Shown here: positions 6,001-58,652 of the stretch, piece by piece | How positions within the stretch are numbered: the first letter of the stretch is position 1 | How the letters are laid out: each line of letters begins with the position of its first letter | Assembly: GCA_031415375.1 (NCBI GenBank) | Contig: JANORP010000378.1 | Coordinates: 48,936-112,935, forward strand | DNA: 64,000 bases | Direction: 5' to 3' | From: Bacteroidota bacterium | GTDB taxonomy: Bacteria; Bacteroidota; Bacteroidia; J057; JADKCL01 | Notes under the pieces: model-generated | The model's input: only the letters and a program-made list of their open reading frames with translations | Told to the model about the DNA's origin: nothing | Database searches by the model: none | Made by a program: the position numbers and the translations under genes

Positions 6001-9000
6001 TCAAGTGACAACTGCACCGCAACAGGTGCTTTGGGCTTGGCCTTGTCCACGACCACATTTACCTGCGCACAGTTGGGTGCCAATACAGTCACGCTCACTG
6101 TGACCGATGCCGCTGCACGCACGGGCACCTGCTCTGCAACCGTGACGGTGACCGATGCCATCCTCCCGATCATCGCTTGCCCATCCAATGCCACGTCCAA
6201 CAATACCACCGGCCAATGCGCCGCAGTGGTGACCTACACCGCAGCATCTGCGATCGACAATTGTACACCCGTCGTGACCCAAACCGCAGGCTTGGCAAGC
6301 GGTGCGAGCTTCCCTGTGGGCGTCACCACCAATACCTTCAGGGCTACCGATGCAGCAGGCAACACGGCCACCTGCTCGTTTACAGTGACCGTGACCGACA
6401 TCCAAGTGCCTGCGATCACCTGCCCTGCCAATACCAGCGTGAGCAATGGCGTAGGTTTGTGTGCTGCCACGGTGAGCTACACCTCACCTATCGGCACAGA
6501 CAACTGCCCTAGCCCTGCCACGACGCAGACCGCAGGCTTGGCCAGCGGTGCTACCTTCCCGATCGGTGCCACCACCAATACCTTTAGGGTTACCGATGCA
6601 GCTGGCAACACGGCCACTTGTGCGTTCACCGTCACGGTGACCGACAACCAAGTGCCCACGATCACATGCCCAACCAACATCAGCGTGAACAATGGCGCTG
6701 GCCTTTGTGCTGCCATCGTGACCTACACCTCACCTGTCGGCATAGACAACTGCCCTAGCCCTGTCACGACGCTCACCGCAGGTTTGGCCAGCGGTGCCAG
6801 CTTCCCTGTCGGTGTCACCACCAATACGTTTAGGGCCACCGATGCGGCTAGCAACACAGCTACTTGTTCCTTCACGGTCACCGTGGTGGACAATACGCTG
6901 CCCACGATCACTTGCCCAGCCAACATCACAGCCAACAACGGCGTGGGTCTCTGTGCTGCCATCGTGACATACGCTGCGCCTATCGGTGCCGACAACTGTA
7001 CGCCCACCACGACCCAAACCGCAGGTTTGGCCAGCGGTGCCAGCTACCCTGTCGGTGTCACTACCAATACCTTCCGTGTCACCGATGCAGCTAGCAACTC
7101 GGCAACTTGTTCCTTCACGGTCACCGTGGTGGACAATACATTGCCTACGATCACTTGCCCAGCCAACATCAGCGTGAACAACGCATCTGGTCTGTGTGCT
7201 GCAACCGTGACATACGCTGCCCCAGTCGGTGCCGACAACTGTACGCCCACCACGACCCAGACCGCAGGTTTGGCCAGCGGTGCCAGCTTCCCTGTCGGTG
7301 TCACCACCAATACCTTCCGCGTCACCGATGCGGCTAGCAACTCGGCGACCTGCTCATTTACCGTCACAGTCGTGGACAATCAGCTCCCAGGCATCACCTG
7401 CCCCGCCAATATCAGTGTGAGTGCGAGTGTGGGTCTGTGTGCAGCAACGGCGACTTATACCGCACCAGTCGGCACCGACAACTGTGCATTGCCGACCATT
7501 ACACAGACCGCAGGCTTGGCCAGCGGCGCAAGCTTCCCTGTCGGTGTCACCACCAACACGTTCCGTGCGACCGATGCAGCAAGCAACTCTGCAACCTGCT
7601 CGTTCACCGTGACCGTGAGTGACAACCAGCTGCCACAGATCACCTGCCCTGCAAACGTGGTCGTCGGCAACGACGTGGGCGTCTGCGGTGCCATCGTGAC
7701 CTTTGCCGCCCCAGTCGGCACCGACAACTGCTCTGCAACGACTGCACTCATCAGCGGCAACGCCAGTGGCACGCCATTCACCGTCGGCACGAGCACTGTG
7801 ACCTTCAGGGCTACTGATGCCGCCGGCAACTCTGCCACGTGTAGCTTCACAGTGACCGTCAACGACACCGAAGCCCCGACTTGGGCTGCTTGCCCAGCCA
7901 ACAGGACTGTCTCCACCTCAACCAACAGCTGCGATGCGATCGTGAGCTGGACTGTGCCTACGGCTGCAGACCAGTGTTCCGTTCCCACGACCTCGACGAC
8001 GCATACCTCTGGTAGCACATTTGTCCTTGGCACCACCACCGTCATCTACAGTGCCGTCGATGCTGCCGGCAACACCGCAACTTGCACCTTCACCGTGACC
8101 GTCAACGACAGCGTGGCCCCAACGGCCCTCTGCCAAGGCGTTACCGTGACGCTTGATGCTGCTGGAAATGGCAGCACCACGAGCAATGCTGTGAACAACG
8201 GTAGCACCGACAATTGCGCCATCGACACAGTGGTCCTGAGCCAGACAGCCTTTACATGTGCCGATGCAGGTGTGAACACAGTCACCCTCATCGTGACCGA
8301 TGCCGCTGGCAACACAAGCACTTGCACCGCAATCGTGACCGTCGTGGCACCTGCCGTCACGGGCACTGCGATTGCCGACACCACGACTTGCGGCTACAAC
8401 ATCTCTTGCAACGGCGGCACCGACGGTGTGGCTACAGCAGCAGGTGCTGGTGGATGCCCATCCTATACCTACCTCTGGAGCAACAATGCCAACACTGCGA
8501 CCGTCACAGGTCTTGCAGCCGGCACCTATACCGTGACGATCACGGATGGTGCAGGTGGTCTTGTCGTCAAGACAGTGACCCTCACGCAGCCAGCTGCCAT
8601 TACCGCGACAGCGGTGGCCACGTCGTCTTGTGCTGGTGACTCGACTGGAGCTGTTAATCTCACACCTGCGGGTGGCAATGATTGCCTTGGTTATACCTTC
8701 CTCTGGAGCAATGGCGCCACGACCGAAGATCTGAGCAACGTTCCTGCGGGCACCTATACCGTGACCGTGACCGACGCAAATGCTTGCACAGGTACACAGA
8801 CCGTGACGGTCGGTGCATTTGCTGCACTCAACCCCACGATCTCCAATGTCGGCAACCTGCTGAGCTCGGTACAAGTGTGGACGAGCTACCAATGGTTGCT
8901 CAATGGCAATACCATCCCTGGAGCCACTGCCAGCGGCTACACTGCCACAGCTACGGGCAGCTACTCCTTGCTGGTGACGGATGCCAATGGCTGTACAGCA

Positions 9001-38080: not shown

Positions 38081-38254
38081 TCAGAGGCCCAAGTCCTCCA
38101 AGACGACCTTGCAGATGCGCGCGTGCCGCTCGGGGAGGTAGGCTACGGTCATTTGGAAGCCAGGAGCAGTCATCTCTTGGGCGATGGAGAGACGGGTCTT
38201 TTTGTAAATTTCTTGCTTTTTAGAGAAGTCGTGGTTTTTGGCGGCTGAGTTCAT
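38081..38254 (-). CDS. Possible small protein (57 aa), below the ORF-track length cut-off
   Basis: Translated by hand: ATG 38254..38252 through TGA 38083..38081 gives MNSAAKNHDFSKKQEIYKKTRLSIAQEMTAPGFQMTVAYLPERHARICKVVLEDLGL. This is more protein-like than the antisense 63-aa track ORF 38057..38248. Confidence 0.35.
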   Translation of the reverse strand: MNSAAKNHDFSKKQEIYKKTRLSIAQEMTAPGFQMTVAYLPERHARICKVVLEDLGL

Positions 38255-38277
38255 GGAAGGTGGACGACAAGATATAC

Positions 38278-38690
38278 ATTATGCAGATAATCAGGAGATT
38301 GTAAAATTTGCAAAACAATCGTTGCAAGGGGATCGTGTTGCCGCTGGATTGGAGGTGTCCTACGCTCTAGATCCCTTCCCGCAAATTGTGCGGGACGCTT
38401 CGTTCGGGATGATTTAGGAGCTTGGTCATTCGATCAGAAGGTCCTGATTGTCGAGATGGTCACTACCAATGACAAGTGATGTATTATCCAGATAATCAGC
38501 AAGTTGAAAAAATGAATAAATTCGTTGTGAAGGGATCGTGTTGCTGCTGGGCAGGGAGTGTATCTGTGCTCAAGATCCCTCGGCTACGCTCTGGATGACC
38601 AAGTGGGTTTGTCATTCGATCAAAAGGCAAATCCCATTTGTGTCCACTCGGGGTGACAAAGGGGTTACTGTTTGAGAAACGAATAGTCAT
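38278..38690. repeat. Two tandem ~205-bp degenerate non-coding repeats
   Basis: Both units begin ATTAT[G/C]CAGATAATCAG. They share TCGTTG..A.GGGATCGTGTTGC.GCTGG, a GATCCC...GGATGA hairpin and GTCATTCGATCA.AAG. Identity is roughly 70% by eye. Confidence 0.7.
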
Positions 38691-38725
38691 AATGGAACAT
38701 CGCAAAGCATCGCTAGCACCTTCAT

Positions 38726-38881
38726 CTACTCCCGCTTCCCCACCACCTCAAAAGCCTTCTGCAGCCTTTCCCCCTCGTCATCGACGAGTGTGATCGTGTG
38801 CATCCCTACTGAGGGGTTGAGCGCCATTTGGTGAAAGGTCTCGGTCGTGCCGATGAAGGCGCGGTCGAGGTGCCAGTGGAT
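38726..38881 (-). pseudogene. Orphan duplicate of the pbpC 3' end (last 51 codons plus stop)
   Basis: It encodes IHWHLDRAFIGTTETFHQMALNPSVGMHTITLVDDEGERLQKAFEVVGKRE*. This matches the C-terminus of the intact pbpC at 41129..41284 except for A versus G at one position. No PBP body lies upstream of it. Confidence 0.85.
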
Positions 38882-38966
38882 GGGTGCGGCTGTGTGGAGA
38901 AGAATAGATGATTCGATGGAGCTGATCTTCTCCCAATTGCTTATCTTTGTAGAAATTGCGATTAGA

Positions 38967-39254
38967 ATGACTGAATTGCCAAATACTTTTGCTGAATTCT
39001 TTGCTGGGATAGGTTTGGTAAGGATGGGTCTTGAAAGGAACGGCTGGAAAATCCAATTTGCCAACGATATCGATCCTTCCAAACGTCGACAATACGAATT
39101 TCACTACAAAGATTCGCATTCCCACTTCCATTTGGGTGATATTCACGAATTGAATGCAGATTCAATACCCCCTGTAACTCTAGCTACGGCCTCGTTTCCG
39201 TGTACTGACCTTTCGTTGGCTGGAAAACGAGTTGGCTTAGGTGGTTCGAAGTGA
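38967..39254 (+). pseudogene. Truncated DNA (cytosine-5) methyltransferase, N-terminal ~95 aa only
   Basis: 'FAEFFAGIGL' is motif I (FxGxG) and 'SFPCTDLSLAG' is motif IV (PCxxxS). The ORF stops 12 codons later at 'GKRVGLGGSK*'. Motifs VI, VIII and X are absent. Confidence 0.75.
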
Positions 39255-39272
39255 ATTTTATGATTTCCAAGT

Positions 39273-40022
39273 TCAGAATCTAGCAGAATAGCTTATTTGT
39301 ATCGTTTCGACCTTTGTGAACTTAATCCTACTCCTTGCCGGATCGAAGAGAAAATCATGCCTTGGGGTTTGGTTGAAGTTCGAAACAATAAACAAGCAAT
39401 ACCGCGACGCTAGCAATTCGGCCACTTTAAATTCCTTTTCAGTCATTGAAATTGAACCTGAAACATCTGCTAAACCTTTTACCTCGACTCCCAGATGTTC
39501 CTTATTTTTCGTGAGGTAGAAGTCAAAGCCACAGCCAATCTGTGTCATGTCCTCAAGAACAAAACCTTGAAAAACGGGAAGGCTCGAATGATTCGTCTTG
39601 AAATACTCCTCGGCTGCCCGTCCTGTGATCAACCTTTTTGCAACCGATGTATCATTCGAGGGAATGTCGAATTTCTCCAGCAATATTCTAGCAGTAACAT
39701 CGGGCACCACTAAGCTCTGAATCAGTTGGCTTAGCGAATTCAAACTCCAATTAGAATATTCGGTCATGTAACGCGTGCAATATTCCCGAGGAGTTGCCCG
39801 TTTCCTGCCTACCCTATCGTTCGCGAAAAATGGGTCAAATTCATCACGATAGCTCTTGATCGAAAGAGGGCGAATACCAATCGCAAGGCCAAGCGTATTG
39901 TACGCTTGAATGAAGCCATCAAAACCCAGAGCGTCGAGCCCTGATTTGCTAAATCTCGAAAGGAAGTAACCAACTATGATTGCTTTTGAACGTAATTCCT
40001 GATTGATCGGTTTATGTCCCAT
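39273..40022 (-). CDS. DUF3883-like restriction-endonuclease-fold protein
   Basis: The C-terminal segment 'GRAAEEYF...GCGFDFYLT...HLGVEVKGL...ISMTEKEFKVAELLASRYCLFIV' follows the D...EVK PD-(D/E)xK pattern typical of DUF3883. ATG 40022 is preferred over TTG 40121. Confidence 0.6.
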   Translation of the reverse strand: MGHKPINQELRSKAIIVGYFLSRFSKSGLDALGFDGFIQAYNTLGLAIGIRPLSIKSYRDEFDPFFANDRVGRKRATPREYCTRYMTEYSNWSLNSLSQLIQSLVVPDVTARILLEKFDIPSNDTSVAKRLITGRAAEEYFKTNHSSLPVFQGFVLEDMTQIGCGFDFYLTKNKEHLGVEVKGLADVSGSISMTEKEFKVAELLASRYCLFIVSNFNQTPRHDFLFDPARSRIKFTKVETIQISYSARF

Positions 40023-40127
40023 AGGTATCCAGAAAATATGCGAATTCTCATTGCTGCAAATTAGACCGCTTTGTGCTATCTTGCAATAGCCATTGGGTGC
40101 CTTGCCAGTTGTCAAATTCAAAACTTG

Positions 40128-41114
40128 ATGCAGATAAAGATGGGTATGAATAGTGTTGATCCTAGACAGCTTTTTGAAACTTGGTTTTCCAACCTCCGAA
40201 AGGTAGGGTCTGACAGGTGGCCGACAAGGGGAACGATCTCAACTACTTTGGTGGTGCTAGATCGTCTCATTGAAGACTTCGATCTTAATTTTCACTCTCA
40301 CATTTGTAGAGGCGGAGTACAAATGAAAGGCGTTTCGCATAAAAAGGTTGTTTCTATCTTGAAAAGATGTGGGTCGAATAAATTCGTCGCAAGCGAAGGA
40401 GGACGAACAAATAGAAGCGGGCAGGGAGATTTGCGCCCACTTTTTGATGCATGGCAGGCGGTAGATTGGACCCTCATTTCAGAATCTGAACGAAATAGTC
40501 TCCTGAGGGAGCTGCAAAGTTTTCTCGTCGCTCGAATCGGGGACTTCCACAATCGCCAAAGGATAAAATTAGTTTTTACATTACAGACCCCAACAAGATC
40601 AATTATTAGGAATTTGGTAGAAGTAGCATCTATTTCTGGAAAATCGGGTGCCGTTGCCCAGCATCTGGTGGGTGCGAAATTGCAATTGCGCTTTCCAACC
40701 GAATCGATTTCCAATGAAGGAACCACCTCAGCAGACCTTCAAACCAAACGCCATCGAGATTTTCAGGTCGGGGAGACCGTCTTTCATGTCACAATGGCAC
40801 CGCAGTCTGCAGTATTCTTAAAATGCAATGAGAATCTCAAAGAAGGGTTATTGGTGTATCTCATTGTGCCACAGGACAAGCTTGAAGCAGCACGCGCATA
40901 CGCGATGGAATTTTGTAAGGGTCAAGTTGCCGTTGAAGCACTAGAATCATTCGTCGCCCAGAATTTGGATGAAATAGGAGCATTCCGTGTAAAGGGCTTT
41001 TTGAATAGTCTTGGTGAATTAATCCAATTGTACAATTACAGAGTGGCTGAAGTTGAACTCGACAAATCTATCATGATTGACTTACCAGAATCCATGAGGG
41101 ACAACAGGTACTAG
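40128..41114 (+). CDS. Hypothetical protein, possibly a DUF4928-like putative restriction-enzyme component
   Basis: An intact ~328-aa ORF, divergent from the DUF3883-like gene across a 105-bp spacer. The segment 'GAVAQHLVGAKLQLRF...DFQVGETVFHVT' recalls the DUF4928 proteins often found beside dcm genes. This is recollection only. Confidence 0.45.
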   Translation: MQIKMGMNSVDPRQLFETWFSNLRKVGSDRWPTRGTISTTLVVLDRLIEDFDLNFHSHICRGGVQMKGVSHKKVVSILKRCGSNKFVASEGGRTNRSGQGDLRPLFDAWQAVDWTLISESERNSLLRELQSFLVARIGDFHNRQRIKLVFTLQTPTRSIIRNLVEVASISGKSGAVAQHLVGAKLQLRFPTESISNEGTTSADLQTKRHRDFQVGETVFHVTMAPQSAVFLKCNENLKEGLLVYLIVPQDKLEAARAYAMEFCKGQVAVEALESFVAQNLDEIGAFRVKGFLNSLGELIQLYNYRVAEVELDKSIMIDLPESMRDNRY

Positions 41115-41128
41115 TAAATTGCAATCCC

Positions 41129-43582
41129 TCACTCCCGCTTCCCCACCACCTCAAACCCCTTCTGCAGCCGTTCCCCCTCGTCATCGACGAGTGTGATCGT
41201 GTGCATCCCTACCGAGGGGTTCAGCGCCATTTGGTGAAAGGTCTCCGTGGTGCCGATAAATGCGCGGTCCAGGTGCCAGTGGATTTTGCTGCTTTGCCTG
41301 CGGTGCGCGGCTTCAAAGACCACGCTGCTCACGTTGCCGCTGAGGTCGATGGGCACATAGACCTTGCTGCTTGTGCGGGGATAGACAAATTCCATGTTGG
41401 TGCTGTTGGCTTCGGCCTCGGCGGCTTCTTTGCAGTCGGCGCGCCAGGGGGGCAGGGGCAGGTAGTCGGCGTGCTTGCGGCGGTACCACTCCTCCTCGCT
41501 CGGCGCGAGGATAAACCATGGCTTGTGGACCATGTTGCCGGGGGATTCGCAGTCGCTGTGCACGCGAAATTGCCCCGTCGGGTCCAGGTGGATCATCTTG
41601 TGGTAGGGGCAAGGCTCAGTGTTCACGCCGCGTGCTGGCACGCGCATGAGCATGAGCTCGTCACACGTTTCGCTGGCGCGGTGGCCGCTTTGCTTGCAGA
41701 CGGTAATCTCCTCCTCGTCGTCAAAGGGTTCGTCAAACCAGACATTGGGGGTGTGGATCATGTTGAAGAGGTCGAAGAGAATGGGTGCAGCGGCGTAGAG
41801 GCCGATGAGGCCGGGGCGACCCTCGCCATCAGCATTGCCGGCCCAGACGGCGACGACGTGCGTGGGCGTGACGCCGACGGCCCAGGCGTCGCGGTAGCCG
41901 TAGCTCGTGCCCGTCTTCCAAGCCACCCGCCGCGAACTGCTGAAATTCATCCATTCGCTCTCGCCCTCAGGGCGGGCGAGTTCGAGCAGGGCATCGAGGG
42001 TTTTGTAGCAAGCCGCCGCGCCCAGGGGCGACTCGTCGGTGAGGACGGGTTTGTAATTTTGCTGCTGGGTGATGGAATGGGCCATGACGTAGTTGGGCGC
42101 ATGAAAGCCGCCTTGGACATAGTGGCCGTTGAAACGATGGTAATCATTCACAGTGCGGGCCATGCTGGCATACATGCCGGCAAGGTCCCAAAGTGTGGCC
42201 TCGGCCCCGCCGAGGATCAGCGAAAGGCCATAGTCATCGGCTGAGCGGTCGAGCGTGGTCATGCCCAGGGATTGCAAGCGCAGCAGGAATTTCTGATGCC
42301 CATAGTCGCTCAGCATCCTGATCGCGGGGATGTTCAGCGAACGTGCAAGCGCCATCTTGGCGGGCACGGCGCCGTCAAAGGTGCGGTTGTAATTTTGCGG
42401 ATTGTAGGCACCGTAATAGGTAGGAATGTCGGGCACGAGGGTATTGGGGAGCAGCTCGCCGTCGTCGAGCATGGAAGCATAGAGAAAAGGCTTCAAAATG
42501 CTGCCTGTGCTGCGCCTTGCACGGATCACATCGACCTCATGCCCGCTCGTGCTGTCGCTCGGGCGCGTATTGCCCACGTAGGCGACCACATCGCCCGACT
42601 CGACCTCAATCACGATGGCGGCGGCATTGTGGACACTGTTTTCCAAAAGGCGGCGTTGGTGCGCTTGCAGGATGTGGCTCGCGCGCTCCTGCATGTGCAT
42701 GTCGAGGGTGCTGCGCATGCGCTGCCCGCTGCCGGCCTCCGCAAGGCTGCGGTCGAGCAGGTGGGGTGCAAAGTCTGGCAATGGATGTGGCCGATCGGGG
42801 AGAGGCTCCTCCATGGCGAGCAGACAGGTCACAGAGTCGATCATGGCATCTTCCCACATGCGCTTGAGCAGGCGGTCACGCTTGGCTTTGAGAGCGCTGC
42901 GGTTGCGACCGGGATGGATGAGTGCAGGTGCATTGGGCAAGACAGCCAGAGTGGCACTTTCGGCCCAGCTCAGCTTGTCGGGGCCGCGCCCAAAGTAGCG
43001 CCATGCCGCTGCGTCGAGGCCCACGACATTGCCCCCAAAAGGTGCATTGCTGGCATACATCGCAAGGATTTCCTGTTTGGAATAGCGCATTTCTACGCGC
43101 AGGGCCATCACGGCCTCGACGGCCTTTTGCCAGAGGCTGCGGCGCTGACCTTTGCGGCTCATGCGCAGCACCTGCATGGTGAGGGTTGAGCCGCCGCTCA
43201 CGAGGCGTCCGTTGGTGACATTCTGCCACATGGCCCGCCCGAGGGATGGGAGATCGACGCCGGGGTGGATGTAAAAGCGTCGATCCTCAAAGGTGGTAAT
43301 ACACTTGGCAAATTTCTCGGGGACGGTGTCGGATGCTGGAAAGCGCCATTGGCCATCGTCGGCGATGCGGGCGCCGAGCAGGTTGCCTGCGCGGTCTTCC
43401 AAGACCATGGAGAGCGGGTCATGGAAGAGCTGCTTGGGGATCAGGAAATAATGCCACCAAATCCCGAAGGTCACCAGCCACAGCAGGATCTTCCAGCGCG
43501 GCTTGAACAGCCATCGCCGCAAGGTGCCGAGGGCCGAGCGTCCTTTTTGGAGCATGCTTTTCAATGATTGGAAGAGGCGCAC
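41129..43582 (-). CDS. pbpC: Penicillin-binding protein 1C (bifunctional transglycosylase/transpeptidase)
   Basis: GT51 motifs are 'EDRRFYIHPGVD' and 'GGSTLTMQ'. Transpeptidase motifs are 'STGSILKP' (SxxK), 'SLN' and 'KTGTS'. The PBP1C-specific C-terminal domain is present. The gene sits downstream of an alpha-2-macroglobulin gene. The start is GTG 43582 or ATG 43555. Confidence 0.9.
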   Translation of the reverse strand: MRLFQSLKSMLQKGRSALGTLRRWLFKPRWKILLWLVTFGIWWHYFLIPKQLFHDPLSMVLEDRAGNLLGARIADDGQWRFPASDTVPEKFAKCITTFEDRRFYIHPGVDLPSLGRAMWQNVTNGRLVSGGSTLTMQVLRMSRKGQRRSLWQKAVEAVMALRVEMRYSKQEILAMYASNAPFGGNVVGLDAAAWRYFGRGPDKLSWAESATLAVLPNAPALIHPGRNRSALKAKRDRLLKRMWEDAMIDSVTCLLAMEEPLPDRPHPLPDFAPHLLDRSLAEAGSGQRMRSTLDMHMQERASHILQAHQRRLLENSVHNAAAIVIEVESGDVVAYVGNTRPSDSTSGHEVDVIRARRSTGSILKPFLYASMLDDGELLPNTLVPDIPTYYGAYNPQNYNRTFDGAVPAKMALARSLNIPAIRMLSDYGHQKFLLRLQSLGMTTLDRSADDYGLSLILGGAEATLWDLAGMYASMARTVNDYHRFNGHYVQGGFHAPNYVMAHSITQQQNYKPVLTDESPLGAAACYKTLDALLELARPEGESEWMNFSSSRRVAWKTGTSYGYRDAWAVGVTPTHVVAVWAGNADGEGRPGLIGLYAAAPILFDLFNMIHTPNVWFDEPFDDEEEITVCKQSGHRASETCDELMLMRVPARGVNTEPCPYHKMIHLDPTGQFRVHSDCESPGNMVHKPWFILAPSEEEWYRRKHADYLPLPPWRADCKEAAEAEANSTNMEFVYPRTSSKVYVPIDLSGNVSSVVFEAAHRRQSSKIHWHLDRAFIGTTETFHQMALNPSVGMHTITLVDDEGERLQKGFEVVGKRE

Positions 43583-43724: not shown

Positions 43725-46700
43725 TTACGAGTTCTCTGGCGTGACGACAGTCACCCATTTACCGGGGATTCTTGCGGAGATGGAATTGTCATACATCGCT
43801 TCTACATACACCGTTGGCAGGTAAAACTTACCGAGGTAACTGGCATTCAACAAAATCCGGAAGGTCTTCTCATTTTCCTCGCTCTTGCGGGTGGGGTAGG
43901 CCCAAGGATACCGCGCTTTTTGCCCTGGTGAACCCAAGTCAAAGTAGGTAAAGACCCTGTCGTCGCGGATGTCTTGGTAGTCGGGCTGCGCAATGGCCTT
44001 TTCGAAACCCGTGCCATCCATGCGTGTATTGTGAATTTCCCAACCCGAGGGGAAGATCTGCGTGAGCGCCAATTCGTCGAGGTCGCCCTTGGTGCCGGGA
44101 TTCTTCATGGTAATCTCGGCTACAAAGTCAGTCCCCTGCTCCAGCGTCGTGGGGTCGAGCGGCGCACCTTGCATGTCAAAATAATTGACGGCCAGGCTCA
44201 CATGATTTTGGCTGGCATCTTGGTCGCCCTTGGCGGGGATGCCCTCGGCGATCACCCTTGCAAAGAGGATGCCCGTGCCTTTGTTTTTGAGCTCGATGCT
44301 GCTTTGGGTACCATGGCCGATGGCGAGATCGATCTGCGCAATGGGCTTGGCACTGCTCCCATCCACCCAGTTGCCGCCGTTGATGCGGTAGGCATATTCC
44401 ATCTTGCTGTTTTGGCCTTGGCTCAGGCCAGCATATTTGGCCATCGCGATGAGGCAGTAGCCGGTGGTCTGCGTGCTCATCCACTCGTCTTTGGAGAGGG
44501 CAGTGGAGACCTTTTTGCTCAGTTCGGCCCCGCGCACCCGATTGCCGATGATGCCGATGCATTCCAAAATGATGGCTTGGTCGCGGATGTCGTTGCCGTA
44601 GGTGAAGCATTGCTCTTGGTATTTGGGCACCGCGATCGCCAAGTCCTTGCTCAGGCGCACAGCCGTCTCGGGCTGCCCTGCAAGCTTGTAGGCAGCAGCC
44701 AAGCGCCACTGCGCGACATTGTCGAGGCCGGGGGTTTCCCGCAAGCGGTTCATCGCGCCCAGCTCTGGCGAGCCCGCCAAGGCCAGCAGGTACAAGCGGT
44801 CACCTTGGATCAATTGCCCTGCGCGGGCAGTGGCCGACCAATTTTTGGCCGCTTTTTTCTGAAAGGCTATCCACTTCGTGAGAAAGGTCTGCGAGACGCG
44901 GTAGCCCTTGTTTTTGGCTTCCACGATGAAATTTCCCGCGTAGTTGGTTCCCCATTCATCGACCTCACCCGTGCCCGGCCAGTAGGAAAGCCCGCCGCTC
45001 GCCTGCTGGAAGGTCTCCAGGCGATCCAGTCCCGCTCGGATGTTTTTGTCGATTTGCTGCTGCATGCCAGCGGGCATGTCGATCAAGTTGGAGACATAGA
45101 GCTGCGGAAAGACCGAGGATGTGGTCTGCTCCACGCAGCCATGTGGGTATTCCAGCAGATATTTCAGGCGCTTGCCGAGGTTGATCGGCGGAATCGTGCT
45201 GAGCTCCAAAGTGCCTTTGTTGGTGCCGACCATGCCGGGATAGGCCACGCTTTGGGTCCAGGCTTGATTGGCATCGACGGCTTTTTCGGTCACGTTCACG
45301 ACCTTGGGATTGGGGTTGCGCACATCGATGTCGATGTGGTAGATGGCCACCTCGCTGCCGCTACGCGCGGTCACCTTGACCGTGCCCTTGCCGATGCGCT
45401 CCTTGACCGCGAGCTCAAAACTCACGAGTTCATCGCCAGGTCGGGCAAAGCTGAGCGATTTGGTCTTGGGGCCGTTGATGGTGAAGATGTCGCTGGCATC
45501 GAGGGTCACATTCACATCCTTCACATGATTTTCCATTGCAAACACCGTCACAGGCAGACGCAGCTCCTCGCCTGGACCGAGCACGCGGGGCAGTGTGCCC
45601 AATACCATGAGGGGTTTGCGCACCCTGCTCGATTTTTCAGATGAGCCGTATGCTGAGCCGTTGCGGGCCACGACCATCGTGCGCACGGCACCGACATAGT
45701 TGGGCATCATGAAGCTGTGCTTTTTGGTTTCGCCGGGCTTGAGGCTGAATGGCCCCATGAATTTCACCACAGGCCGAAAGCGGTTTTGCTTGCTGCCCTC
45801 CTTGGGGGCCATGCCGTCGTCACCACCGATGCCGAGCAATTTTGTGAGGTCGGCACCATAGGCGCCGATGACCTTGTCATACAAGTCCCAGGTCTTGACG
45901 TCGAGCGCCTCGCGGGCATAGAAGCTGGCCCAGGGATTGGGGGTCTCAAAACGCGTGAGATCCAGTAGGCCCTCATCGACCACAGCGACGGTATAGGTCA
46001 TTGCCTGCCCAGTCGCTTCACTCACGCCTACATCGACGCGCTCCATGGGCGCGAGCACGTCGCCCACAATTATTTTGGGCTTCAATTCCGTCTTGGGGTC
46101 GGTGATCTCGATCGGGATCACGCCATACATACGCATGGGCAAGTCATTCACGGTTTGGGCATGGGGTTGGATGAGGCTCACGTGGGCGTAAATGTTGGGG
46201 GCCATCTCGGCGGTAGCCGGGAAGGTATAGGAGGCGGCATCCAAGCCATTGCTCTCGACCCAGTGGGTGCTGATGACCTTAGCACCCGATTCGAGGCTCA
46301 CGAGTGCACGGCCGGCCTTGCCGGTAGGTATGGTCAGGGTTACATTCTCCCCGACCTTGTAGTTTTCCTTGTCGGCGCTGAATGTGAGCATCGTCGCGCC
46401 GCCAGGGTTGTCCTTCTGGGATCGCCCAGCCCAACCTGGCCAGTCGATATAGACGACTTGCCCCGTGCAGTGGCCACCCTCGTCACAGGCGCGCACCATG
46501 TAGCGGCCCCATGCGGGATACTTGACATTGAATTTCCAAGTGCCCTCGCCGTTGCGCACGCTGATCGTGTCTTTGCTCACCTGCTCTTGGTAAAATTTCT
46601 CGTTGTAGGTCGTCTCGCTATTGGCGGTTTGGTCCCACCACCATTTCCAATCGAGCTTGTACAAAGTCATCTCGACCTTGCGTTCGCCCTTGGGATTGCC

Positions 46701-49379
46701 ATCGGCATCGACGGTGACGACCTGCACTTTGTGGTCGATGTCGGTGAGGATCATGCCGCGCGCCTTGTCGCCCTTGGGGATCTTGATGCCCACAAAGCGG
46801 TCATAAGGGTAATAGGGCAGACTAAAGCGGTCGGTGGAGAATGCGCCACCAGGCTCGAAGACTTTGGTCACGAAGTTGGCGTTGAGTTTTCCCGGCGCAT
46901 TTCCACTGAGTGCGATTTTGAGGGGAATTTTGGCGATGCCATCCTCATCGACCTTGCCTTCAAAGATCGTCTGGCGCTCTGCGTCAAATTTGCGCACGGG
47001 GTCGTCAAATTCATAGTCTGCATACCGCTTGAAGCTGGTAGGCGTGGATGTGAGGGCGACACTTACGTCGGCAGCGAGGTTTTTGGCGATGGCGCCATGC
47101 AGCCATTGCACCTCTAGCTTGCCCTCCATGTTTTCCATTTCCTTGGAGAGAAATTCTTTGCCAAAGTCGATCTTGATCTTGAGGCGGTTGGGCATCACCG
47201 TCTCGATCTTGATCGTCTTGTCAAAGCTTGCGCCGCCGACATCGACCCGCAGATTGTAATTTCCGGTAGGGGCATTGTCTGCGGTGGCGGTTTGGTAGGT
47301 ATAGACGCCATTGACATGGCTGGTCTTGATACTTTTGTTCACGAGCTGCCCGAGGGAGTTGGTCAGGGTGAATGTGACAGGGTGATCTGCGGGCAATGAG
47401 CTCAACTCATCCTCCAACATGAAGGTGCTGAAAATCGTGTCGCCGGGTCGCCAGACGCCGCGCTCGCCATAGATAAAGCCCTTCACGCCTTTGTAGTAGC
47501 GCTGCCCGCTGATGTCAAATTTGCTCAAGGAGAGTGCGTAGCCATCGCCCAGCTTCAGGTATCCCCGCTGATTGCCTTGCTTGGCCACGATCACAAAGGG
47601 CACGATATCGACATCTGCCGTGGCGATGCCCTCGCTATTGGTACTGAGGCGCTTGAGGACTTGGCGTTGGTAATCGTAGATCTCGATGTCCACGCCGCCG
47701 AGGGGCGCGGTGGTGTGCAAATCATTGACGGCGATCGTCATCGTGCCATCGGTGCCACGCTTGGCGATGATGCCGAGGTCGCTTGCGAGGATGTTGCGGC
47801 TTGCACCACGGCTTTCGTAGGTGTAGTAGGCCTTGTGGCAAGGATTGTCGCGGTTGTCCCAGGTATCGCCATAGTCGGTGTCGTCATAGTATTCCCAATA
47901 GCTGCTTTCATCGCCATTGTCGCTCCAAGCGCCTTCTTCTTCGGCAGGCTTCTTCTTCGATTCGGATTCCCCGGCAGCCTCGGCCTCTGCTTCACAAGTA
48001 TAGATGGAGTGCTCCTTGCTAAAATTGACTGTGACGCGGTAGATGGCACCGGGCTCGGAATTGATGAGGCTGCCCAGGTCGATGATGTGACGGTTCCATT
48101 GGTGCAGGTTCAGGGACTTGTCGCCGTCGAGGCGCACGGTGCTGCGGTGCACGACCTTGCCTACGCGCTGCAATTCGCGGTCGCCCTCGAGGTCATTGAC
48201 TTGGAGGAATTGGAGGATGTTGTTTTCATAGATCTTCATGATCTCGAGATCGACGGCCTTGAGGCTCACGGCCTCAAATGCAAAGGGGAGCTGTGCACCA
48301 GCGCGGGGCAGGATGTTGCCATTGCCAGCAATGCGCACCTCTGGCTTGAGTTCTTCAAATTGAATGTCGAAGGTCTTGCCTTCCTTGAGCTTGTGGCCGA
48401 GGATGTTTTGCACGCCCGGCGATACCGTAAGCGTGTGCTCGCCGGTGGTACGCACAGCGGGAAAGACCTTTACGTCATTGCCTTCGACGGTATAGCGCAG
48501 CCGCATGTCGCCGAGGCGGATGAGGCCATTGAGGTCTTGTGCCTTGCGGATTGGGTCGCTGAATGTGAGCACGACATATTGGTCGGGATCGTTGTAGGTT
48601 TTGTATTCCATTACCGCAAATTCGCCGAGGGCTGGAATGCGTACCTCCGTTTTGCCTTCCTTGTCGATGCCCAAGGCATCGCCATCCCAAGAGATGGTGA
48701 CCATCGAGGCCGACCCGCCACGGCGCAGGCTATCCACCCTGAAGGTATGCTCGCGCCCATCAAGGCTATGCGACCACTTTACACGAAATTGGTCGTCGTC
48801 TTGCTCGGCCGTCAGCACTTTTTCGACAAGTTCTGGAAACTCATAGTCGGCCGTGGTGAGCGTGCCGTTGAGCGCTTGCCAGATGAGTTTTTGTTTGTCG
48901 AGGGTCTCGATGCCGAGCACGCTCACTTCAAAATTTTGCTGCTCGGTCTCAAATTGGAACGGGAATGTCTGCAATTTGTCTTCAAGGCCCGTGACAAATT
49001 TTCCCAATTCAAAGGTCGCTGTGTAAAATTGAGCGGTCGGCATGGGCTTGCTGGACTCAAATTGCAAGGTGCGGGCATCGATCCAAATGGCTTTGCCCTC
49101 TAGCTCAGGCTCAAACGTGAAGGGGTTCTCGCTGAGTGCAACGCCGATCTGATCGTCCTTGACGGCGTTCTCATTGAGTCGCACCTTGATCGTGGACTGT
49201 CGAGAGATCTTGCCTGTCGTGTAGGCCCCAATGTAGGGCGCAAAAGCTTCGTCAAATTTGTAATCGTGCGTCACTTGCTTCTTGCTGCAAGCGATCAGCA
49301 GTGTGAGACAAAGCACTGCGAGAAGTGTTTTGCTGAGGCTGGGAGGGTTAAAAATCTTCATGGGATTCGGTATTGGCAA
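43725..49379 (-). CDS. Bacterial alpha-2-macroglobulin family lipoprotein (1,884 aa)
   Basis: Lipobox 'LTLLIAC'. Thioester motif 'GCVEQ' in 'LEYPHGCVEQTTSS'. The size, the MG-domain architecture and the conserved synteny with pbpC all fit. Confidence 0.9.
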   Translation of the reverse strand: MPIPNPMKIFNPPSLSKTLLAVLCLTLLIACSKKQVTHDYKFDEAFAPYIGAYTTGKISRQSTIKVRLNENAVKDDQIGVALSENPFTFEPELEGKAIWIDARTLQFESSKPMPTAQFYTATFELGKFVTGLEDKLQTFPFQFETEQQNFEVSVLGIETLDKQKLIWQALNGTLTTADYEFPELVEKVLTAEQDDDQFRVKWSHSLDGREHTFRVDSLRRGGSASMVTISWDGDALGIDKEGKTEVRIPALGEFAVMEYKTYNDPDQYVVLTFSDPIRKAQDLNGLIRLGDMRLRYTVEGNDVKVFPAVRTTGEHTLTVSPGVQNILGHKLKEGKTFDIQFEELKPEVRIAGNGNILPRAGAQLPFAFEAVSLKAVDLEIMKIYENNILQFLQVNDLEGDRELQRVGKVVHRSTVRLDGDKSLNLHQWNRHIIDLGSLINSEPGAIYRVTVNFSKEHSIYTCEAEAEAAGESESKKKPAEEEGAWSDNGDESSYWEYYDDTDYGDTWDNRDNPCHKAYYTYESRGASRNILASDLGIIAKRGTDGTMTIAVNDLHTTAPLGGVDIEIYDYQRQVLKRLSTNSEGIATADVDIVPFVIVAKQGNQRGYLKLGDGYALSLSKFDISGQRYYKGVKGFIYGERGVWRPGDTIFSTFMLEDELSSLPADHPVTFTLTNSLGQLVNKSIKTSHVNGVYTYQTATADNAPTGNYNLRVDVGGASFDKTIKIETVMPNRLKIKIDFGKEFLSKEMENMEGKLEVQWLHGAIAKNLAADVSVALTSTPTSFKRYADYEFDDPVRKFDAERQTIFEGKVDEDGIAKIPLKIALSGNAPGKLNANFVTKVFEPGGAFSTDRFSLPYYPYDRFVGIKIPKGDKARGMILTDIDHKVQVVTVDADGNPKGERKVEMTLYKLDWKWWWDQTANSETTYNEKFYQEQVSKDTISVRNGEGTWKFNVKYPAWGRYMVRACDEGGHCTGQVVYIDWPGWAGRSQKDNPGGATMLTFSADKENYKVGENVTLTIPTGKAGRALVSLESGAKVISTHWVESNGLDAASYTFPATAEMAPNIYAHVSLIQPHAQTVNDLPMRMYGVIPIEITDPKTELKPKIIVGDVLAPMERVDVGVSEATGQAMTYTVAVVDEGLLDLTRFETPNPWASFYAREALDVKTWDLYDKVIGAYGADLTKLLGIGGDDGMAPKEGSKQNRFRPVVKFMGPFSLKPGETKKHSFMMPNYVGAVRTMVVARNGSAYGSSEKSSRVRKPLMVLGTLPRVLGPGEELRLPVTVFAMENHVKDVNVTLDASDIFTINGPKTKSLSFARPGDELVSFELAVKERIGKGTVKVTARSGSEVAIYHIDIDVRNPNPKVVNVTEKAVDANQAWTQSVAYPGMVGTNKGTLELSTIPPINLGKRLKYLLEYPHGCVEQTTSSVFPQLYVSNLIDMPAGMQQQIDKNIRAGLDRLETFQQASGGLSYWPGTGEVDEWGTNYAGNFIVEAKNKGYRVSQTFLTKWIAFQKKAAKNWSATARAGQLIQGDRLYLLALAGSPELGAMNRLRETPGLDNVAQWRLAAAYKLAGQPETAVRLSKDLAIAVPKYQEQCFTYGNDIRDQAIILECIGIIGNRVRGAELSKKVSTALSKDEWMSTQTTGYCLIAMAKYAGLSQGQNSKMEYAYRINGGNWVDGSSAKPIAQIDLAIGHGTQSSIELKNKGTGILFARVIAEGIPAKGDQDASQNHVSLAVNYFDMQGAPLDPTTLEQGTDFVAEITMKNPGTKGDLDELALTQIFPSGWEIHNTRMDGTGFEKAIAQPDYQDIRDDRVFTYFDLGSPGQKARYPWAYPTRKSEENEKTFRILLNASYLGKFYLPTVYVEAMYDNSISARIPGKWVTVVTPENS

Positions 49380-55686: not shown

Positions 55687-56537
55687 ACCTTACCCAGTTG
55701 ATCCATCGATATCTCGCAGCCCCTTTTCCTATTTGGAACCTTGAGCTGACAGAAACGCTAGTCCAGAAAAAATGGATGGAATTGGAAGGAATCGAAATTC
55801 AAAGCCGAGAGAACTACTCTACAGCTGCTAGCTATCATCAAAAAGGGATGTCTGTAGGAGTCAGATCGCAACTACAGCATGCTAGCCAACCAAAAATGTA
55901 CCAGGAAGCCCCAAATGCTGAACTGCTTGGTGTCTTCTATGACAAACATGGACTAGAGCTACTGAGTGAGCAGGATTTGAAGGAAAGTGATGCGATCGTT
56001 AAGCTTGAGGAGTCAATCGCGATGCTAGATTTGGTGCCGCATCTTGGCGCTTGTGTGGCCCTTTTGGTGAGGTCAATACAAGTTTTGAAGCAAGAGGGTC
56101 CTCAGACTGACCTCAGTTACAGTCATCCAAAGATTCCTTTCTCGATTTTCGTTTCGGTTTGTGAGGATCGCTCCATGATATCTACACTGCGTGTAGCAGA
56201 GTCCATTCTTCATGAAGCGATGCACCTATTTCTCACGCTCATAGAGGATGAGGCCCCTCTGGTGAAGGATGACGCTATTGGGAAGTTCTATTCTCCATGG
56301 AAGCACGAAAACAGGAATGCGCGGGGAATTTTGCACGGAGCTTTCGTTTTTAGGGCCATTTGGGAGTTTTGCGAGCGTTTGCGCAATGATGACCTTGCCC
56401 CCCAAGAAAAGAAGTATGTGATCAACCGTCAAACGACGATTTCAGAAGAACTGTCGTTACTGCCAGAGTTTAGTGACAATTCGGACCTCACTAGAGATGG
56501 GGCCACCCTGATAGCAAGTCTATTGCCATTGAGCTGA
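55683..56537 (+). CDS. HExxH-motif peptide-modification protein (aKG-HExxH / TIGR04267-like)
   Basis: Contains 'ESILHEAMHLFLTLIED'. An ATGA overlap joins it to the upstream oxygenase gene. The ~280-aa size and the position next to an rSAM/SPASM gene fit the family. Confidence 0.7.
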   Translation: MNLTQLIHRYLAAPFPIWNLELTETLVQKKWMELEGIEIQSRENYSTAASYHQKGMSVGVRSQLQHASQPKMYQEAPNAELLGVFYDKHGLELLSEQDLKESDAIVKLEESIAMLDLVPHLGACVALLVRSIQVLKQEGPQTDLSYSHPKIPFSIFVSVCEDRSMISTLRVAESILHEAMHLFLTLIEDEAPLVKDDAIGKFYSPWKHENRNARGILHGAFVFRAIWEFCERLRNDDLAPQEKKYVINRQTTISEELSLLPEFSDNSDLTRDGATLIASLLPLS

Positions 56538-57240
56538 ACTCGGATTCTGGCTTCATTGATTGCAGCAAACCAATTCTGGTAGGCAAAATTATCGGATCGT
56601 CTTTATCGATATGAAATCGAGCAAGAAGCGCTTCGATCCACTGCATCTCCTTCAAAAGTCTAAAATGGAGCCTTTGACGAGCAATTACGAAGCTCTCATC
56701 ACGTAACCCTAGAATCTTAATGGTTTGGCGACCTCGAAAAGTCCTGCCTTCAATTTCCCAACCTCTAAAACGGATATGGCATCTAGGATCTTCTTTGGAT
56801 GGGTTAATGAGTATTGGCTCTTCCGCATCGGCATCATGGTGGCTCTTCATTCTCTTGGTTGAATCAACCAATGGAAAGAAGTTCCTTTTCTTACTCGTGT
56901 TTGGCAACGGTTTGCAAAGCAGTAAATTCTCCCAGCTGTAAGCCAGCCAGTAGTACCCTGGAGTTAGTGATCCTCCCTTTCTCCATGGCCATTCGTCAAT
57001 TCTGCCTTTTGGACGATAGTGCTCAACGGGCGGCAAATCTCCAACGAAGTAGGCCTCGCTGAAACAACATTTGTTGTGCTGACAATGCTTCAATGCTTCG
57101 ACAACGGCTTTGATCTTATAGGTACGATAAAACTTAAGTTTTCTGCCTCCTTTGTCGTATTCCAATTTCAACTCATCAGTTCTTGGCTTGCCCAATTTTT
57201 CCAATTTTGGTGGACACGGGTCTTTGAATATTTGGATCAT
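56491..57240 (-). CDS. ptuB: Septu PtuB-like HNH nuclease (TIGR02646-like)
   Basis: 'NKCCFSEAYFVGDLPPVEHYRPKG' and 'YSWENLLLCKPLPNTSKKRNFFP' align with the HNH core (His, then Asn). An ATGA overlap at 57237-57240 joins it to the upstream ATPase gene. Confidence 0.65.
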   Translation of the reverse strand: MIQIFKDPCPPKLEKLGKPRTDELKLEYDKGGRKLKFYRTYKIKAVVEALKHCQHNKCCFSEAYFVGDLPPVEHYRPKGRIDEWPWRKGGSLTPGYYWLAYSWENLLLCKPLPNTSKKRNFFPLVDSTKRMKSHHDADAEEPILINPSKEDPRCHIRFRGWEIEGRTFRGRQTIKILGLRDESFVIARQRLHFRLLKEMQWIEALLARFHIDKDDPIILPTRIGLLQSMKPESEFSSMAIDLLSGWPHL

Positions 57241-58652
57241 TTCATTAGCCCTCGTGCTTTGAGTTGTTCTGTGGCAGCTTGGATTTGATCCAAAAATCGC
57301 TGATCCTCTTCGTTTTCGGCTACAGGAATTTCGACAAGTAATCTATCTAGTTCATCCAACCGAAGTCGATCCTCATCCGTTTTCGTATCCTGGTCAAGAA
57401 TTTCCCGCCGCTCCTGAATTAAACCCTCAATCTCGGGGCTTCTGTCACTCCCAAGTCCAAAAAGCTCACCTGTCGCAAACAGTCCAATGCGGCCACCTTT
57501 GATGACATACGGCTCACTGTCAATGATCACAACCCCGTCTTCTCGTCTAAGCACAACTAGGTTCTCCGACTCGGACGCCTGAGCCATAAAGGGGCTATGG
57601 GCAGTGCAGATAAATTGAGTATTCTTGAAATGATGTACCAATTTCTTTTTGAGCGATCGTTGCCAAGATGGATGCAAATGCAGATCAATCTCATCTACCA
57701 AGACAACAGCTGGCTCGTTAAGTGGCGAATCGCTATCACGATTTCGGAGTAACATTCGAAACGCGAGGTCGGCAATCCATGCAAACATGGTTTGATAACC
57801 AAGGCTGAGGGCTTGAAAGGGAACTAGCCCACTCGGCATCGCAATCTCCACCAATCGATCGTTTCGTTTGCCCTCCTTATAATATTCATTGACCGTTATT
57901 TTCTCTGGCGTTCCATCAAGATCTGGTAATAGGTCTGATAATACCTCTTTAACCTTCATGAAAAATCTTGTCGCTGGACCTTCTTCAGTGGTTCTAACTC
58001 TTTCGGCATTCGAATCGGAAAACAACTTGTAAAGTAGGTCCTCGGGATCAAACAACTCGTTGGAATTGGTTAACAGATTGGAGGCAGAGTCTTTGAGTAA
58101 TATTTCGCTTTCAAGATTGTTTACGCCTAAATGTCTATTTGCTGCGTAGGCAAATACATTCATGGACCCAAATTCAAGCAATTCCCCTGGATTCACGTCA
58201 TACTTTTCAAGTTCCCAGTTTTCAATTTCGAAAGAAATGGAATGCTCAGTTTGTTCTTTGTCAGTTGGTATTTCCCCAAGTCCGACGCCAAAGGACAGTG
58301 ATGATCCCACAAACGACTTGACAGTTGCCCCCACCATTGCAATTCTTTCCCAATCAGAATTGTTAGCCAGAACTTCGTCCATTTCTGGTTTTATCTTGAC
58401 GGGGCCTGAGTTAATTTTGGGGCCTGCGCTGTCACCGTCCTTCTTTGGTAACGCCTCAACGTCTGGCCTCATCCATGCCAAACACTTCAACAACGTCGTT
58501 TTTCCCATCCCATTGTCTCCAAGGATCAGCGTCCATCTGGCGATAGCCCCTTTTTCGTCGACAAGCTTCAATTGGCTTTCGCCAAGACAGTTGATATTCT
58601 TTACCTTCAGTGAGGTAAAATACATCGGGGTCACACTATTTTTTTCGTCCAT
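57237..58652 (-). CDS. ptuA: Septu PtuA-like AAA/ABC-type ATPase
   Basis: The N-terminal 'LKVKNINCLGE...WTLILGDNGMGKTTLLKCLAW' carries the Walker A motif. 'VVLVDEIDLHLHPSWQRSL...FICTAHSPF' carries the Walker B and D-loop region, in the AAA_15/21 style. Confidence 0.7.
   Translation of the reverse strand: MDEKNSVTPMYFTSLKVKNINCLGESQLKLVDEKGAIARWTLILGDNGMGKTTLLKCLAWMRPDVEALPKKDGDSAGPKINSGPVKIKPEMDEVLANNSDWERIAMVGATVKSFVGSSLSFGVGLGEIPTDKEQTEHSISFEIENWELEKYDVNPGELLEFGSMNVFAYAANRHLGVNNLESEILLKDSASNLLTNSNELFDPEDLLYKLFSDSNAERVRTTEEGPATRFFMKVKEVLSDLLPDLDGTPEKITVNEYYKEGKRNDRLVEIAMPSGLVPFQALSLGYQTMFAWIADLAFRMLLRNRDSDSPLNEPAVVLVDEIDLHLHPSWQRSLKKKLVHHFKNTQFICTAHSPFMAQASESENLVVLRREDGVVIIDSEPYVIKGGRIGLFATGELFGLGSDRSPEIEGLIQERREILDQDTKTDEDRLRLDELDRLLVEIPVAENEEDQRFLDQIQAATEQLKARGLMK

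Follow-up and report, generated by a model that had tools for sequence, protein, structure and literature searches.

A foreign restriction-modification islet between two diverged copies of the pbpC 3' end in an uncultured Bacteroidota lineage

We analysed a stretch of 64,000 nucleotides from an uncultured Bacteroidota bacterium (assembly GCA_031415375.1, contig JANORP010000378.1, forward-strand positions 48,936 to 112,935; the whole stretch is called the window below, and its coordinates are counted from its first letter). In this window, the 3' end of pbpC, the gene for penicillin-binding protein 1C (PBP1C), is present in two copies that lie on either side of a short foreign islet with the remains of a type II restriction-modification (R-M) module. 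The evidence at the locus shows that the tail of the chromosomal gene has undergone reciprocal recombination with a diverged pbpC tail carried in by a foreign R-M unit.

The duplicated pbpC tail and the islet between its copies

The initial annotation of the window had described two direct repeats of 156 nt with 12 mismatches, both encoding the last 51 codons of PBP1C, and this description was borne out by two analyses. A repeat finder returned a 154-nt pair (38728-38881 and 41131-41284, 94% identity, spacing 2403 nt), and a codon-by-codon comparison on the minus strand aligned 38726-38881 with 41129-41284 over 156 nt with exactly 12 mismatches. The minus-strand translation of both tails is IHWHLDRAFIGTTETFHQMALNPSVGMHTITLVDDEGERLQK[A/G]FEVVGKRE*, which corresponds to the last 51 codons and the stop of the pbpC open reading frame (ORF). 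When the region was compared with the whole window by BLASTN, the repeat pair was detected with E = 8e-63 and no third copy of the tail was found. The elements of the locus are the following:

38726..38881, minus strand: left repeat copy, 51 codons and TAG of the displaced pbpC tail, bodyless
38882..41128, no strand assigned: foreign islet, 2,247 bp, 43.5% GC, with three reading frames, one of them a gene fragment only
38967..39254, plus strand: 5' fragment of dcm, a C5 cytosine methyltransferase gene (PF00145), codons 1-95 with motifs I-IV, then a stop
39273..40022, minus strand, antisense: NOV_C/DUF3883 (PD-(D/E)xK-type) gene, 249 aa, PF13020 E = 3.8e-11, product identical to protein P0121
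40140..41114, plus strand: DUF4928 gene, 324 aa, type II restriction endonuclease homologue, PF16280 E = 2.4e-86
41129..41284, minus strand: right repeat copy, the in-gene tail, last 51 codons and TGA, contiguous with the pbpC body
41129..43582, minus strand: pbpC (penicillin-binding protein 1C), 817 aa, intact, TIGR02073 PBP_1c 679 bits

As had also been stated, only the right copy continues into the body of the gene; in the left copy, the homology to pbpC breaks off sharply at 38881/38882. The initial annotation had left room for the left copy to be the end of a second, longer and degraded pbpC paralogue. This was excluded, as no other pbpC fragment was detected in the window by tblastn. The pbpC gene itself is intact, with a TIGR02073 score well above the cutoff of 494 bits and the Pfam domains Transgly, Transpeptidase and BiPBP_C, so that its annotation is safe.

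The insert, for which an AT-richer composition over 2.25 kb had been noted, has a GC content far below that of both tails (60%), of the pbpC body (61.5%) and of the host (roughly 60%), and is foreign by composition. The arrangement was also recovered from an independently assembled Logan unitig (SRR20217188_2109470, run SRR20217188), which equals 41212..38780 at 100% identity and spans both inner junctions. Because an independent unitig reproduces these junctions, the arrangement is not a binning or scaffolding artefact, and an assembly chimera was rejected on the same grounds. This 2.4-kb unitig was the only match in an exact-sequence look-up with the 249-aa NOV_C protein; the corresponding look-ups of PBP1C and of protein P0001 returned no record. 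The unitig was also considered as possible evidence of an excised circle, which was rejected, since its ends fall in the 42-nt identical core of the repeat, a branch point of a k=31 graph.

An ORF of 118 aa (38726-39082, minus strand) overlaps the left copy and was found to be a chimera: the 67 codons at its start lie antisense to the promoter and 5' end of dcm, and the last 51 come from the displaced pbpC tail. It matches BiPBP_C with E = 1.4e-9, but it is not a gene, and an annotation as a PBP-related protein would be unwarranted.

Divergence of the two tails and the ancestral site

The 12 differences between the tails (7.7%) consist of eight single synonymous changes, one codon that differs at two positions (GCT versus GGG, Ala/Gly) and the stop codon (TAG versus TGA). 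The Ala/Gly exchange is the sole amino-acid change, and 10 of the 12 differences are synonymous. Nei-Gojobori counting of one tail against the other gave pS = 0.286 and pN = 0.0165 (pN/pS about 0.06), and the probability of two or fewer non-synonymous changes among 12 under neutrality is P = 1.4e-5. Since a bodyless tail cannot be selected for PBP1C function, the divergence must have arisen in two working pbpC genes, and the tails are two functional alleles that diverged in separate lineages, each as the end of a working pbpC. By the same synonymous pattern, one of the tails was brought in by the islet as a replacement copy. This agrees with the initial annotation, according to which such an element carries a replacement gene end and leaves the displaced fragment behind, and it is in line with the icd/e14 comparison given below. 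The event is young relative to the divergence of the tails, as the reading frame of the displaced tail has not been interrupted so far.

Regarding the source of the incoming tail, the two tails are separated by a pS of 0.29, compared with 0.41-0.48 when either tail or the pbpC body is set against L001, the nearest relative found (see below). Together with the host-like GC content of both tails, this lower value shows that the tail was donated by a close relative of high GC content, whereas the cargo genes had another, low-GC source.

A different origin of the repeats has to be weighed here. R-M units that reportedly were 'inserted with long target duplication' were described by Nobusato et al. 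in 2000. R-M units that are flanked by long direct repeats and lack mobility genes form a documented class, the repeats of which often span a stop codon (PMC2853133). The operational definition of this class comprises homologues of R and M genes, an insert of less than 20 kb, a repeat of more than 30 bp, the absence of mobility genes and an empty site elsewhere (PMC2853133). All these properties were found at the pbpC locus, where the repeat likewise spans the stop codon, so that the target gene survives. The recipient's own 156-bp tail could therefore be imagined to have been duplicated de novo, for instance by staggered breaks and fill-in, with the two copies diverging in place afterwards. 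A bodyless copy, however, would have drifted neutrally, whereas the present tails differ by one amino acid and both have kept their stops (the P of 1.4e-5 given above). Even if merely six of the changes had fallen in the free copy, the probability of one or no non-synonymous change among them would be P = 0.003. Moreover, in the published cases the repeat and the target are near-identical, such as 44-47 of 46-47 positions (PMC2853133), in contrast to the diverged alleles found here, one of which arrived with the insert, and to the truncated M gene of the present islet. True target duplication followed by divergence in place is thus largely refuted by the substitution pattern, and we give it hardly any credence.

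The divergence could also have been acquired later. If one of two identical tails had been overwritten by DNA from a related strain, the differences would be silent on the arrival of the islet. Recombination among close relatives is common, and a pS of 0.29 would fit a close donor. The differences, however, span almost the entire repeat: its first 14 nt are identical, it contains a perfect core of 42 nt at 38769-38810 and 41172-41213, and the differences reach the final two bases, that is, the stop codon. A conversion tract would therefore have to extend from 14 nt inside one edge to the last two bases, and a donor would lack homology on the islet side. We regard such an overwriting as highly improbable.

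The ancestral state of the locus was assessed in related genomes. A scan with one genome per species yielded three relatives, all of them metagenome-assembled genomes of uncultured Bacteroidota (L001, L002 and L003), the PBP1C proteins of which are 94%, 91% and 80% identical in amino acids to that of the window. In all three, pbpC has a single tail and no islet, and the interval 38882-41128 had no BLASTN match in any of them. The comparison with empty sites that the initial annotation had called for was hence successful at the genus level, and the possibility raised there, that all relatives would carry the same arrangement, did not hold. No closer, strain-level empty site was found in a metagenome scan with PBP1C, in which the relatives found were at most 54% identical.

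In L001 and L002, a gene of the PD-(D/E)XK-transposase family (PF12784) is convergent on pbpC and ends 7-13 nt past the pbpC stop. In both genomes, what follows pbpC agrees with the 20-27 nt next to the left copy. The end of such a gene can be recognised beside the left copy in the alignment with these two genomes:

38699..38716, plus strand: last five codons and stop (IAKHR*) of a PD-(D/E)XK-transposase-family gene

The BLASTN match to L001 and L002 passes the pbpC stop by 22-28 nt in the left copy versus 3-8 nt in the right copy, where the 8 nt past the stop (GGGATTGC) resemble the post-stop sequence of both genomes. Although the homologous flank is short, the left copy thus retains the ancestral downstream junction and the right copy the gene body, as a reciprocal insertion between the tails predicts. 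The left copy is most likely the original chromosomal tail, and the right copy would be the one brought in by the element under an integrative model. The tails themselves do not polarise the change: of the 12 variable sites, five agree with L001 in the left copy and four in the right copy, so that the outgroups L001 and L002 are uninformative in this respect.

The gene that directly follows pbpC belongs to PF12784 in L001 (12456-13415) and L002 (4484-5446). In L003 (1992-2684) it is an ORF of 230 aa that resembles a LytTR-type response regulator, as judged by eye only. From the differing next gene among close relatives, it follows that the pbpC 3' flank is a variable region in this clade. In the window, tblastn with the L001 and L002 proteins detected no PDDEXK_2 remnant beyond the last ~6 codons, and the idea that 38.0-38.7 kb is a decayed PDDEXK_2 gene was rejected on this basis.

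The eroded R-M module and its sister islets

The initial annotation had counted three island genes between the repeats. Three reading frames are indeed present, but they represent one eroded type II R-M module, consisting of a dcm fragment, a NOV_C gene and a gene for a DUF4928 restriction-enzyme homologue. The product of the dcm fragment matches PF00145 at profile positions 2-84 of 324 (E = 6.5e-16) and the PADLOC model MTase_II (1.7e-31); its identity to the complete Dcm proteins that accompany DUF4928 homologues is 66-68%. A Bacteroidetes-type -7 box (TATCTTTG) is located upstream of it. Codons 96 to about 395 are absent, and no C-terminal dcm remnant was found in the window; a complete methyltransferase, with ten motifs and a target-recognition domain, is therefore lacking. 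The roughly 900 bp where the dcm body would sit are filled by the antisense NOV_C gene.

The DUF4928 product is also recognised by the REBASE-derived PADLOC model REase_II PDLC03543 (E = 1.3e-44). Its gene is convergent with pbpC, the two stops being 14 nt apart. The ORF is of full length and retains all 78 invariant columns of the alignment. On the other hand, it is the lone deviant at 26 columns where the 19 homologues agree (e.g. G to W, W to R, P to F), versus 0-4 such columns for the other proteins. With a mean identity of 49% to the others, versus 60-69% among these, it is the most divergent of the 20 sequences compared. Such deviations would fit a constraint that relaxed once the methyltransferase had been lost, but a long branch alone would account for them as well. 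As an R-M system, the module has probably ceased to work.

In homologous loci, found in Haliscomenobacter hydrossis (CP002691) and several metagenomes, a dcm gene of 394-396 aa is located just before DUF4928 on the same strand and overlaps it, and a vsr gene is sometimes present downstream. The window module resembles these dcm-DUF4928(-vsr) modules of Bacteroidota in gene families, gene order and DUF4928 identity (49-54%), and differs from them in the replacement of the dcm body by the antisense NOV_C gene.

For dcm-DUF4928 and for NOV_C alike, more than 1,200 homologues were counted. At least two independent replacements of dcm by NOV_C have occurred in DUF4928 modules. In the window (38967-40022), NOV_C is antisense to dcm, which breaks off after codon 95, behind motif IV. 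In the Saprospiraceae loci L054-L058 (L054 4935-6499), NOV_C is on the sense strand, the dcm start and about 13 codons (MKTYPKTVAEFFA, motif I) are left ahead of it, and the DUF4928 gene behind it lacks its normal N-terminal part. A gene of the same NOV_C family follows a complete dcm of 297 aa in L059-L062 (L059 3101-4747), in a position similar to that of a restriction gene. These replacements may mean that R-M systems repeatedly swap components, or that dcm genes are invaded by a nuclease gene.

The flanks of every dcm-DUF4928 locus that was fetched were compared for bracketing repeats, and two further bracketed modules were found. In L036, a JGI metagenome contig, an intact module is bracketed by 95-nt direct repeats (6598-6692 and 8980-9074, 88% identity, spacing 2382 nt). 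This 95-nt sequence does not belong to a tRNA, matched nothing in Rfam and contains no end of a called gene. In L038-L043, the repeats are 47-49 nt long (88% identity, spacing 2444 nt; 4598-4646 and 7042-7090 in L038) and correspond to the 3' half of tRNA-Lys(UUU); of the two copies, the one joined to the tRNA body is functional, and in the distant one both T-loop and anticodon are broken. The locus L039 is otherwise the same as L038, but a tyrosine-integrase element (7089 onward; genes for a tyrosine integrase, HTH_17, AAA_25 and a primase) is inserted there not more than 2-3 nt from the repeat boundary, in tandem with the R-M islet. In L044, the module lies beside tRNA-Asp at the edge of a larger element of integrative type, and no bracketing repeats were found in L033 and L054.

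Of the five independent canonical dcm-DUF4928 lineages open to assessment, the window included, three thus carry the module as a minimal repeat-bracketed islet. The three islets measure 2,247, 2,287 and 2,395 bp, of which just 99, 177 and 267 nt are not part of the R-M operon. Their targets differ, and no terminal sequence is shared among the islets of the window, L036 and L038, on account of which a transposon-like cassette was rejected. The only feature that recurs in all three is the Bacteroidetes -7 promoter box ahead of dcm.

Mode of integration, neighbouring features and significance

The integration of e14 into icd in E. coli K-12, which is IntE-mediated according to the annotation of the record, was used as a benchmark. 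As annotated, the e14 element starts within icd, 165 nt ahead of the gene's end, and icdC, a pseudogene of 165 nt, is located at the far end of the element. We measured 12 differences and two amino-acid changes between the icd tail and icdC over these 165 nt, of which the first 11 are identical. In both cases, the last ~50 codons of a housekeeping gene form a direct repeat, the copy on the element side keeps the gene intact, the other copy is bodyless, and the copies differ mainly at synonymous sites (in pbpC, 12 differences and one amino-acid change over 156 nt). The systems differ in that e14 is a 15-kb element that encodes intE and xisE, unlike the 2.2-kb islet of the window, which targets pbpC and has no recombinase. 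Phage 21 likewise integrates into the 3' end of icd. By this analogy, the anatomy of the pbpC islet matches that of the attL and attR sites made by an integrase at the 3' end of a protein-coding gene.

The events are best explained as follows. A diverged pbpC tail carried on the incoming DNA recombined reciprocally, in a Campbell-type event, with the chromosomal tail. The crossover joined the pbpC body to the replacement tail, giving a full-length PBP1C with one amino-acid change, and the other tail was left bodyless on the far side of the islet, beside the old downstream sequence. The recombination itself would be the work of a site-specific integrase, either provided in trans or lost since then. 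An integrase is favoured by the sharp 5' boundary of the repeat, which from there runs to the end of the gene, by the match with icd/e14, and by the tRNA-Lys sister islet, the repeat boundary of which lies at a live integrase site.

The islet could accordingly be compared with a cis-mobilizable element (CIME). These elements, defined for derivatives of ICEs (integrative and conjugative elements) and of IMEs (integrative and mobilizable elements) in Firmicutes, are flanked by att sites and have lost their recombinase, and an incoming element can accrete beside them (PMC5704250). The pbpC islet shares with them a recombinase-less insert, without integration or transfer genes, that has an att-like repeat on either side and sits at a target gene's 3' end, and the tandem of R-M islet and integrase element at the tRNA-Lys of L039 recalls the pattern of a CIME with an incoming element. 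Unlike in CIMEs, no cognate integrase element of the pbpC site was found, and the islets contain no remnants of decayed backbone genes. Among the readings considered here we prefer an att-flanked islet of the CIME type, with the pbpC tail as att site and an integrase that acted in trans or was lost, and take it to be about evenly balanced between likely and unlikely.

Several points weigh against this interpretation. No integrase, excisionase or remnant of either was found in the three islet ORFs or in 20 flanking window ORFs that were scanned, as the initial annotation had already noted for the integrase. The search for other islands at pbpC that it had suggested gave none: neither a second tail copy nor an integrase element at the pbpC tail was present in 16 other pbpC loci, and a degenerate pattern of the pbpC tail had no matches in viral contigs. 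Random decay is unlikely to have left the R-M operon alone three times, with no backbone remnant in any of the three islets. The empty sites come from other species, that is, genus-level relatives, and not from strains of the same species, and the native tail cannot be told from the outgroups (five versus four matches to L001). Finally, RecA-dependent recombination finds a sufficient substrate in a 156-nt block of this identity that includes 42 nt of perfect match.

This last point leads to a recombination without any site-specific recombinase. An R-M unit flanked by pbpC-tail repeats in a relative could have been looped out by recombination between these repeats, or a DNA fragment could have been circularised, and the product then inserted by a RecA-mediated single crossover. 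The R-M life cycle behind such a scenario was proposed by Furuta, Abe and Kobayashi in 2010 (PMC2853133); for this cycle of amplification and release, direct evidence exists only for amplification, with none of an experimental kind for release and re-infection (PMC2853133). This route would produce an identical geometry and, between donor and recipient alleles, an identical synonymous-only divergence, the perfect core would serve as substrate, and the lack of an integrase in the scanned ORFs would be expected. The scenario would also agree with the minimal content of all three repeat-bracketed dcm-DUF4928 islets, which hold the R-M operon only, and with the documented class of repeat-flanked R-M units without mobility genes (PMC2853133). 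It leaves the first attachment of the tail copy to the cargo unexplained, however, and the boundary of the tRNA-Lys islet, 2-3 nt from the point of integrase insertion at the anticodon stem-loop, is a signature of a recombinase and not of homology. The repeat also starts at a sharp boundary and extends to the gene end, as in icd/e14. On balance, we consider a purely RecA-dependent origin somewhat unlikely.

The initial annotation had viewed the locus as a decayed or trans-mobilised integrative islet with the pbpC tail as att site. The foreign insert, the replacement tail and the empty sites stand; a site-specific recombinase would be one of two possible agents, since homologous recombination gives the same structure. 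As found here, the repeats are not both the recipient's own, which sets the locus apart from the long-target-duplication class, and no own integrase is present, which sets it apart from autonomous integrative elements.

A further proposal, which we regard as doubtful, concerns the dcm-DUF4928 operon itself, which could be a minimal recombinase-less mobile unit that captures the 3' end of a target and re-inserts into related genomes by homology. Its targets would have been pbpC in the window, tRNA-Lys in L038 and the 95-nt sequence in L036. Such a unit predicts islets that consist of the operon only, of which three independent ones were found, and diverged functional pbpC tails, and both were observed. 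If this is true, the operon would supply evidence, at the level of sequence, that the R-M life cycle includes 'release and re-infection' (PMC2853133).

Other features of the window were noted as well. The neighbours of the locus on its two sides are:

38266..38680, no strand assigned: two tandem non-coding repeat units of ~205 nt, between the displaced tail and an SprB-repeat gene, outside the islet
43725-49379: bacterial alpha-2-macroglobulin gene with A2M/bMG domains, upstream of pbpC and forming an operon-like pair with it

The tandem units belong to a family of ~200-nt repeats with a conserved core of ~90 nt (…GAGGGATCTTGAGC.CAGATACACCCCCTACACAGCGGCA…) and stops in all frames. Members of this family occur in three or more places in L001 (1081-1326, 1666-1767 and 16051-16128). 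An Rfam search of the window at 36-44 kb and of L001, L036 and L038 detected only the tRNA-Lys in L038 and no match for the ~205-nt units. An ORF of 57 aa (38084-38254, minus strand) has a weak match, below the gathering cutoff, to the C-terminal part of GmrSD type IV enzymes (PF07510, E = 0.003), and may be what is left of a defence gene that formerly occupied this variable spot behind pbpC. At 56491-58652 (minus strand), a gene for an AAA_21/AAA_15 ATPase of 471 aa (AbiEii-like/OLD-like family) lies beside an ORF of 249 aa without a Pfam match; the two are possibly a two-gene defence system, unrelated to the islet.

The ingredients of the pbpC locus are known from other systems: integration at a gene 3' end with a replacement tail from icd/e14, recombinase-less att-flanked islets from CIMEs, and repeat-flanked units from R-M systems. 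No report of the pbpC tail as an attachment site was found in the searchable literature. For R-M units flanked by long repeats, it has been a long-standing ambiguity whether the repeats arose by true target duplication or from a homologous segment carried by the element; taken together, the window and the two sister islets favour a segment carried by the element. The locus is a clean natural example of a housekeeping gene that offers its 3' end as a landing pad, and it comes from a Bacteroidota lineage that is uncultured.

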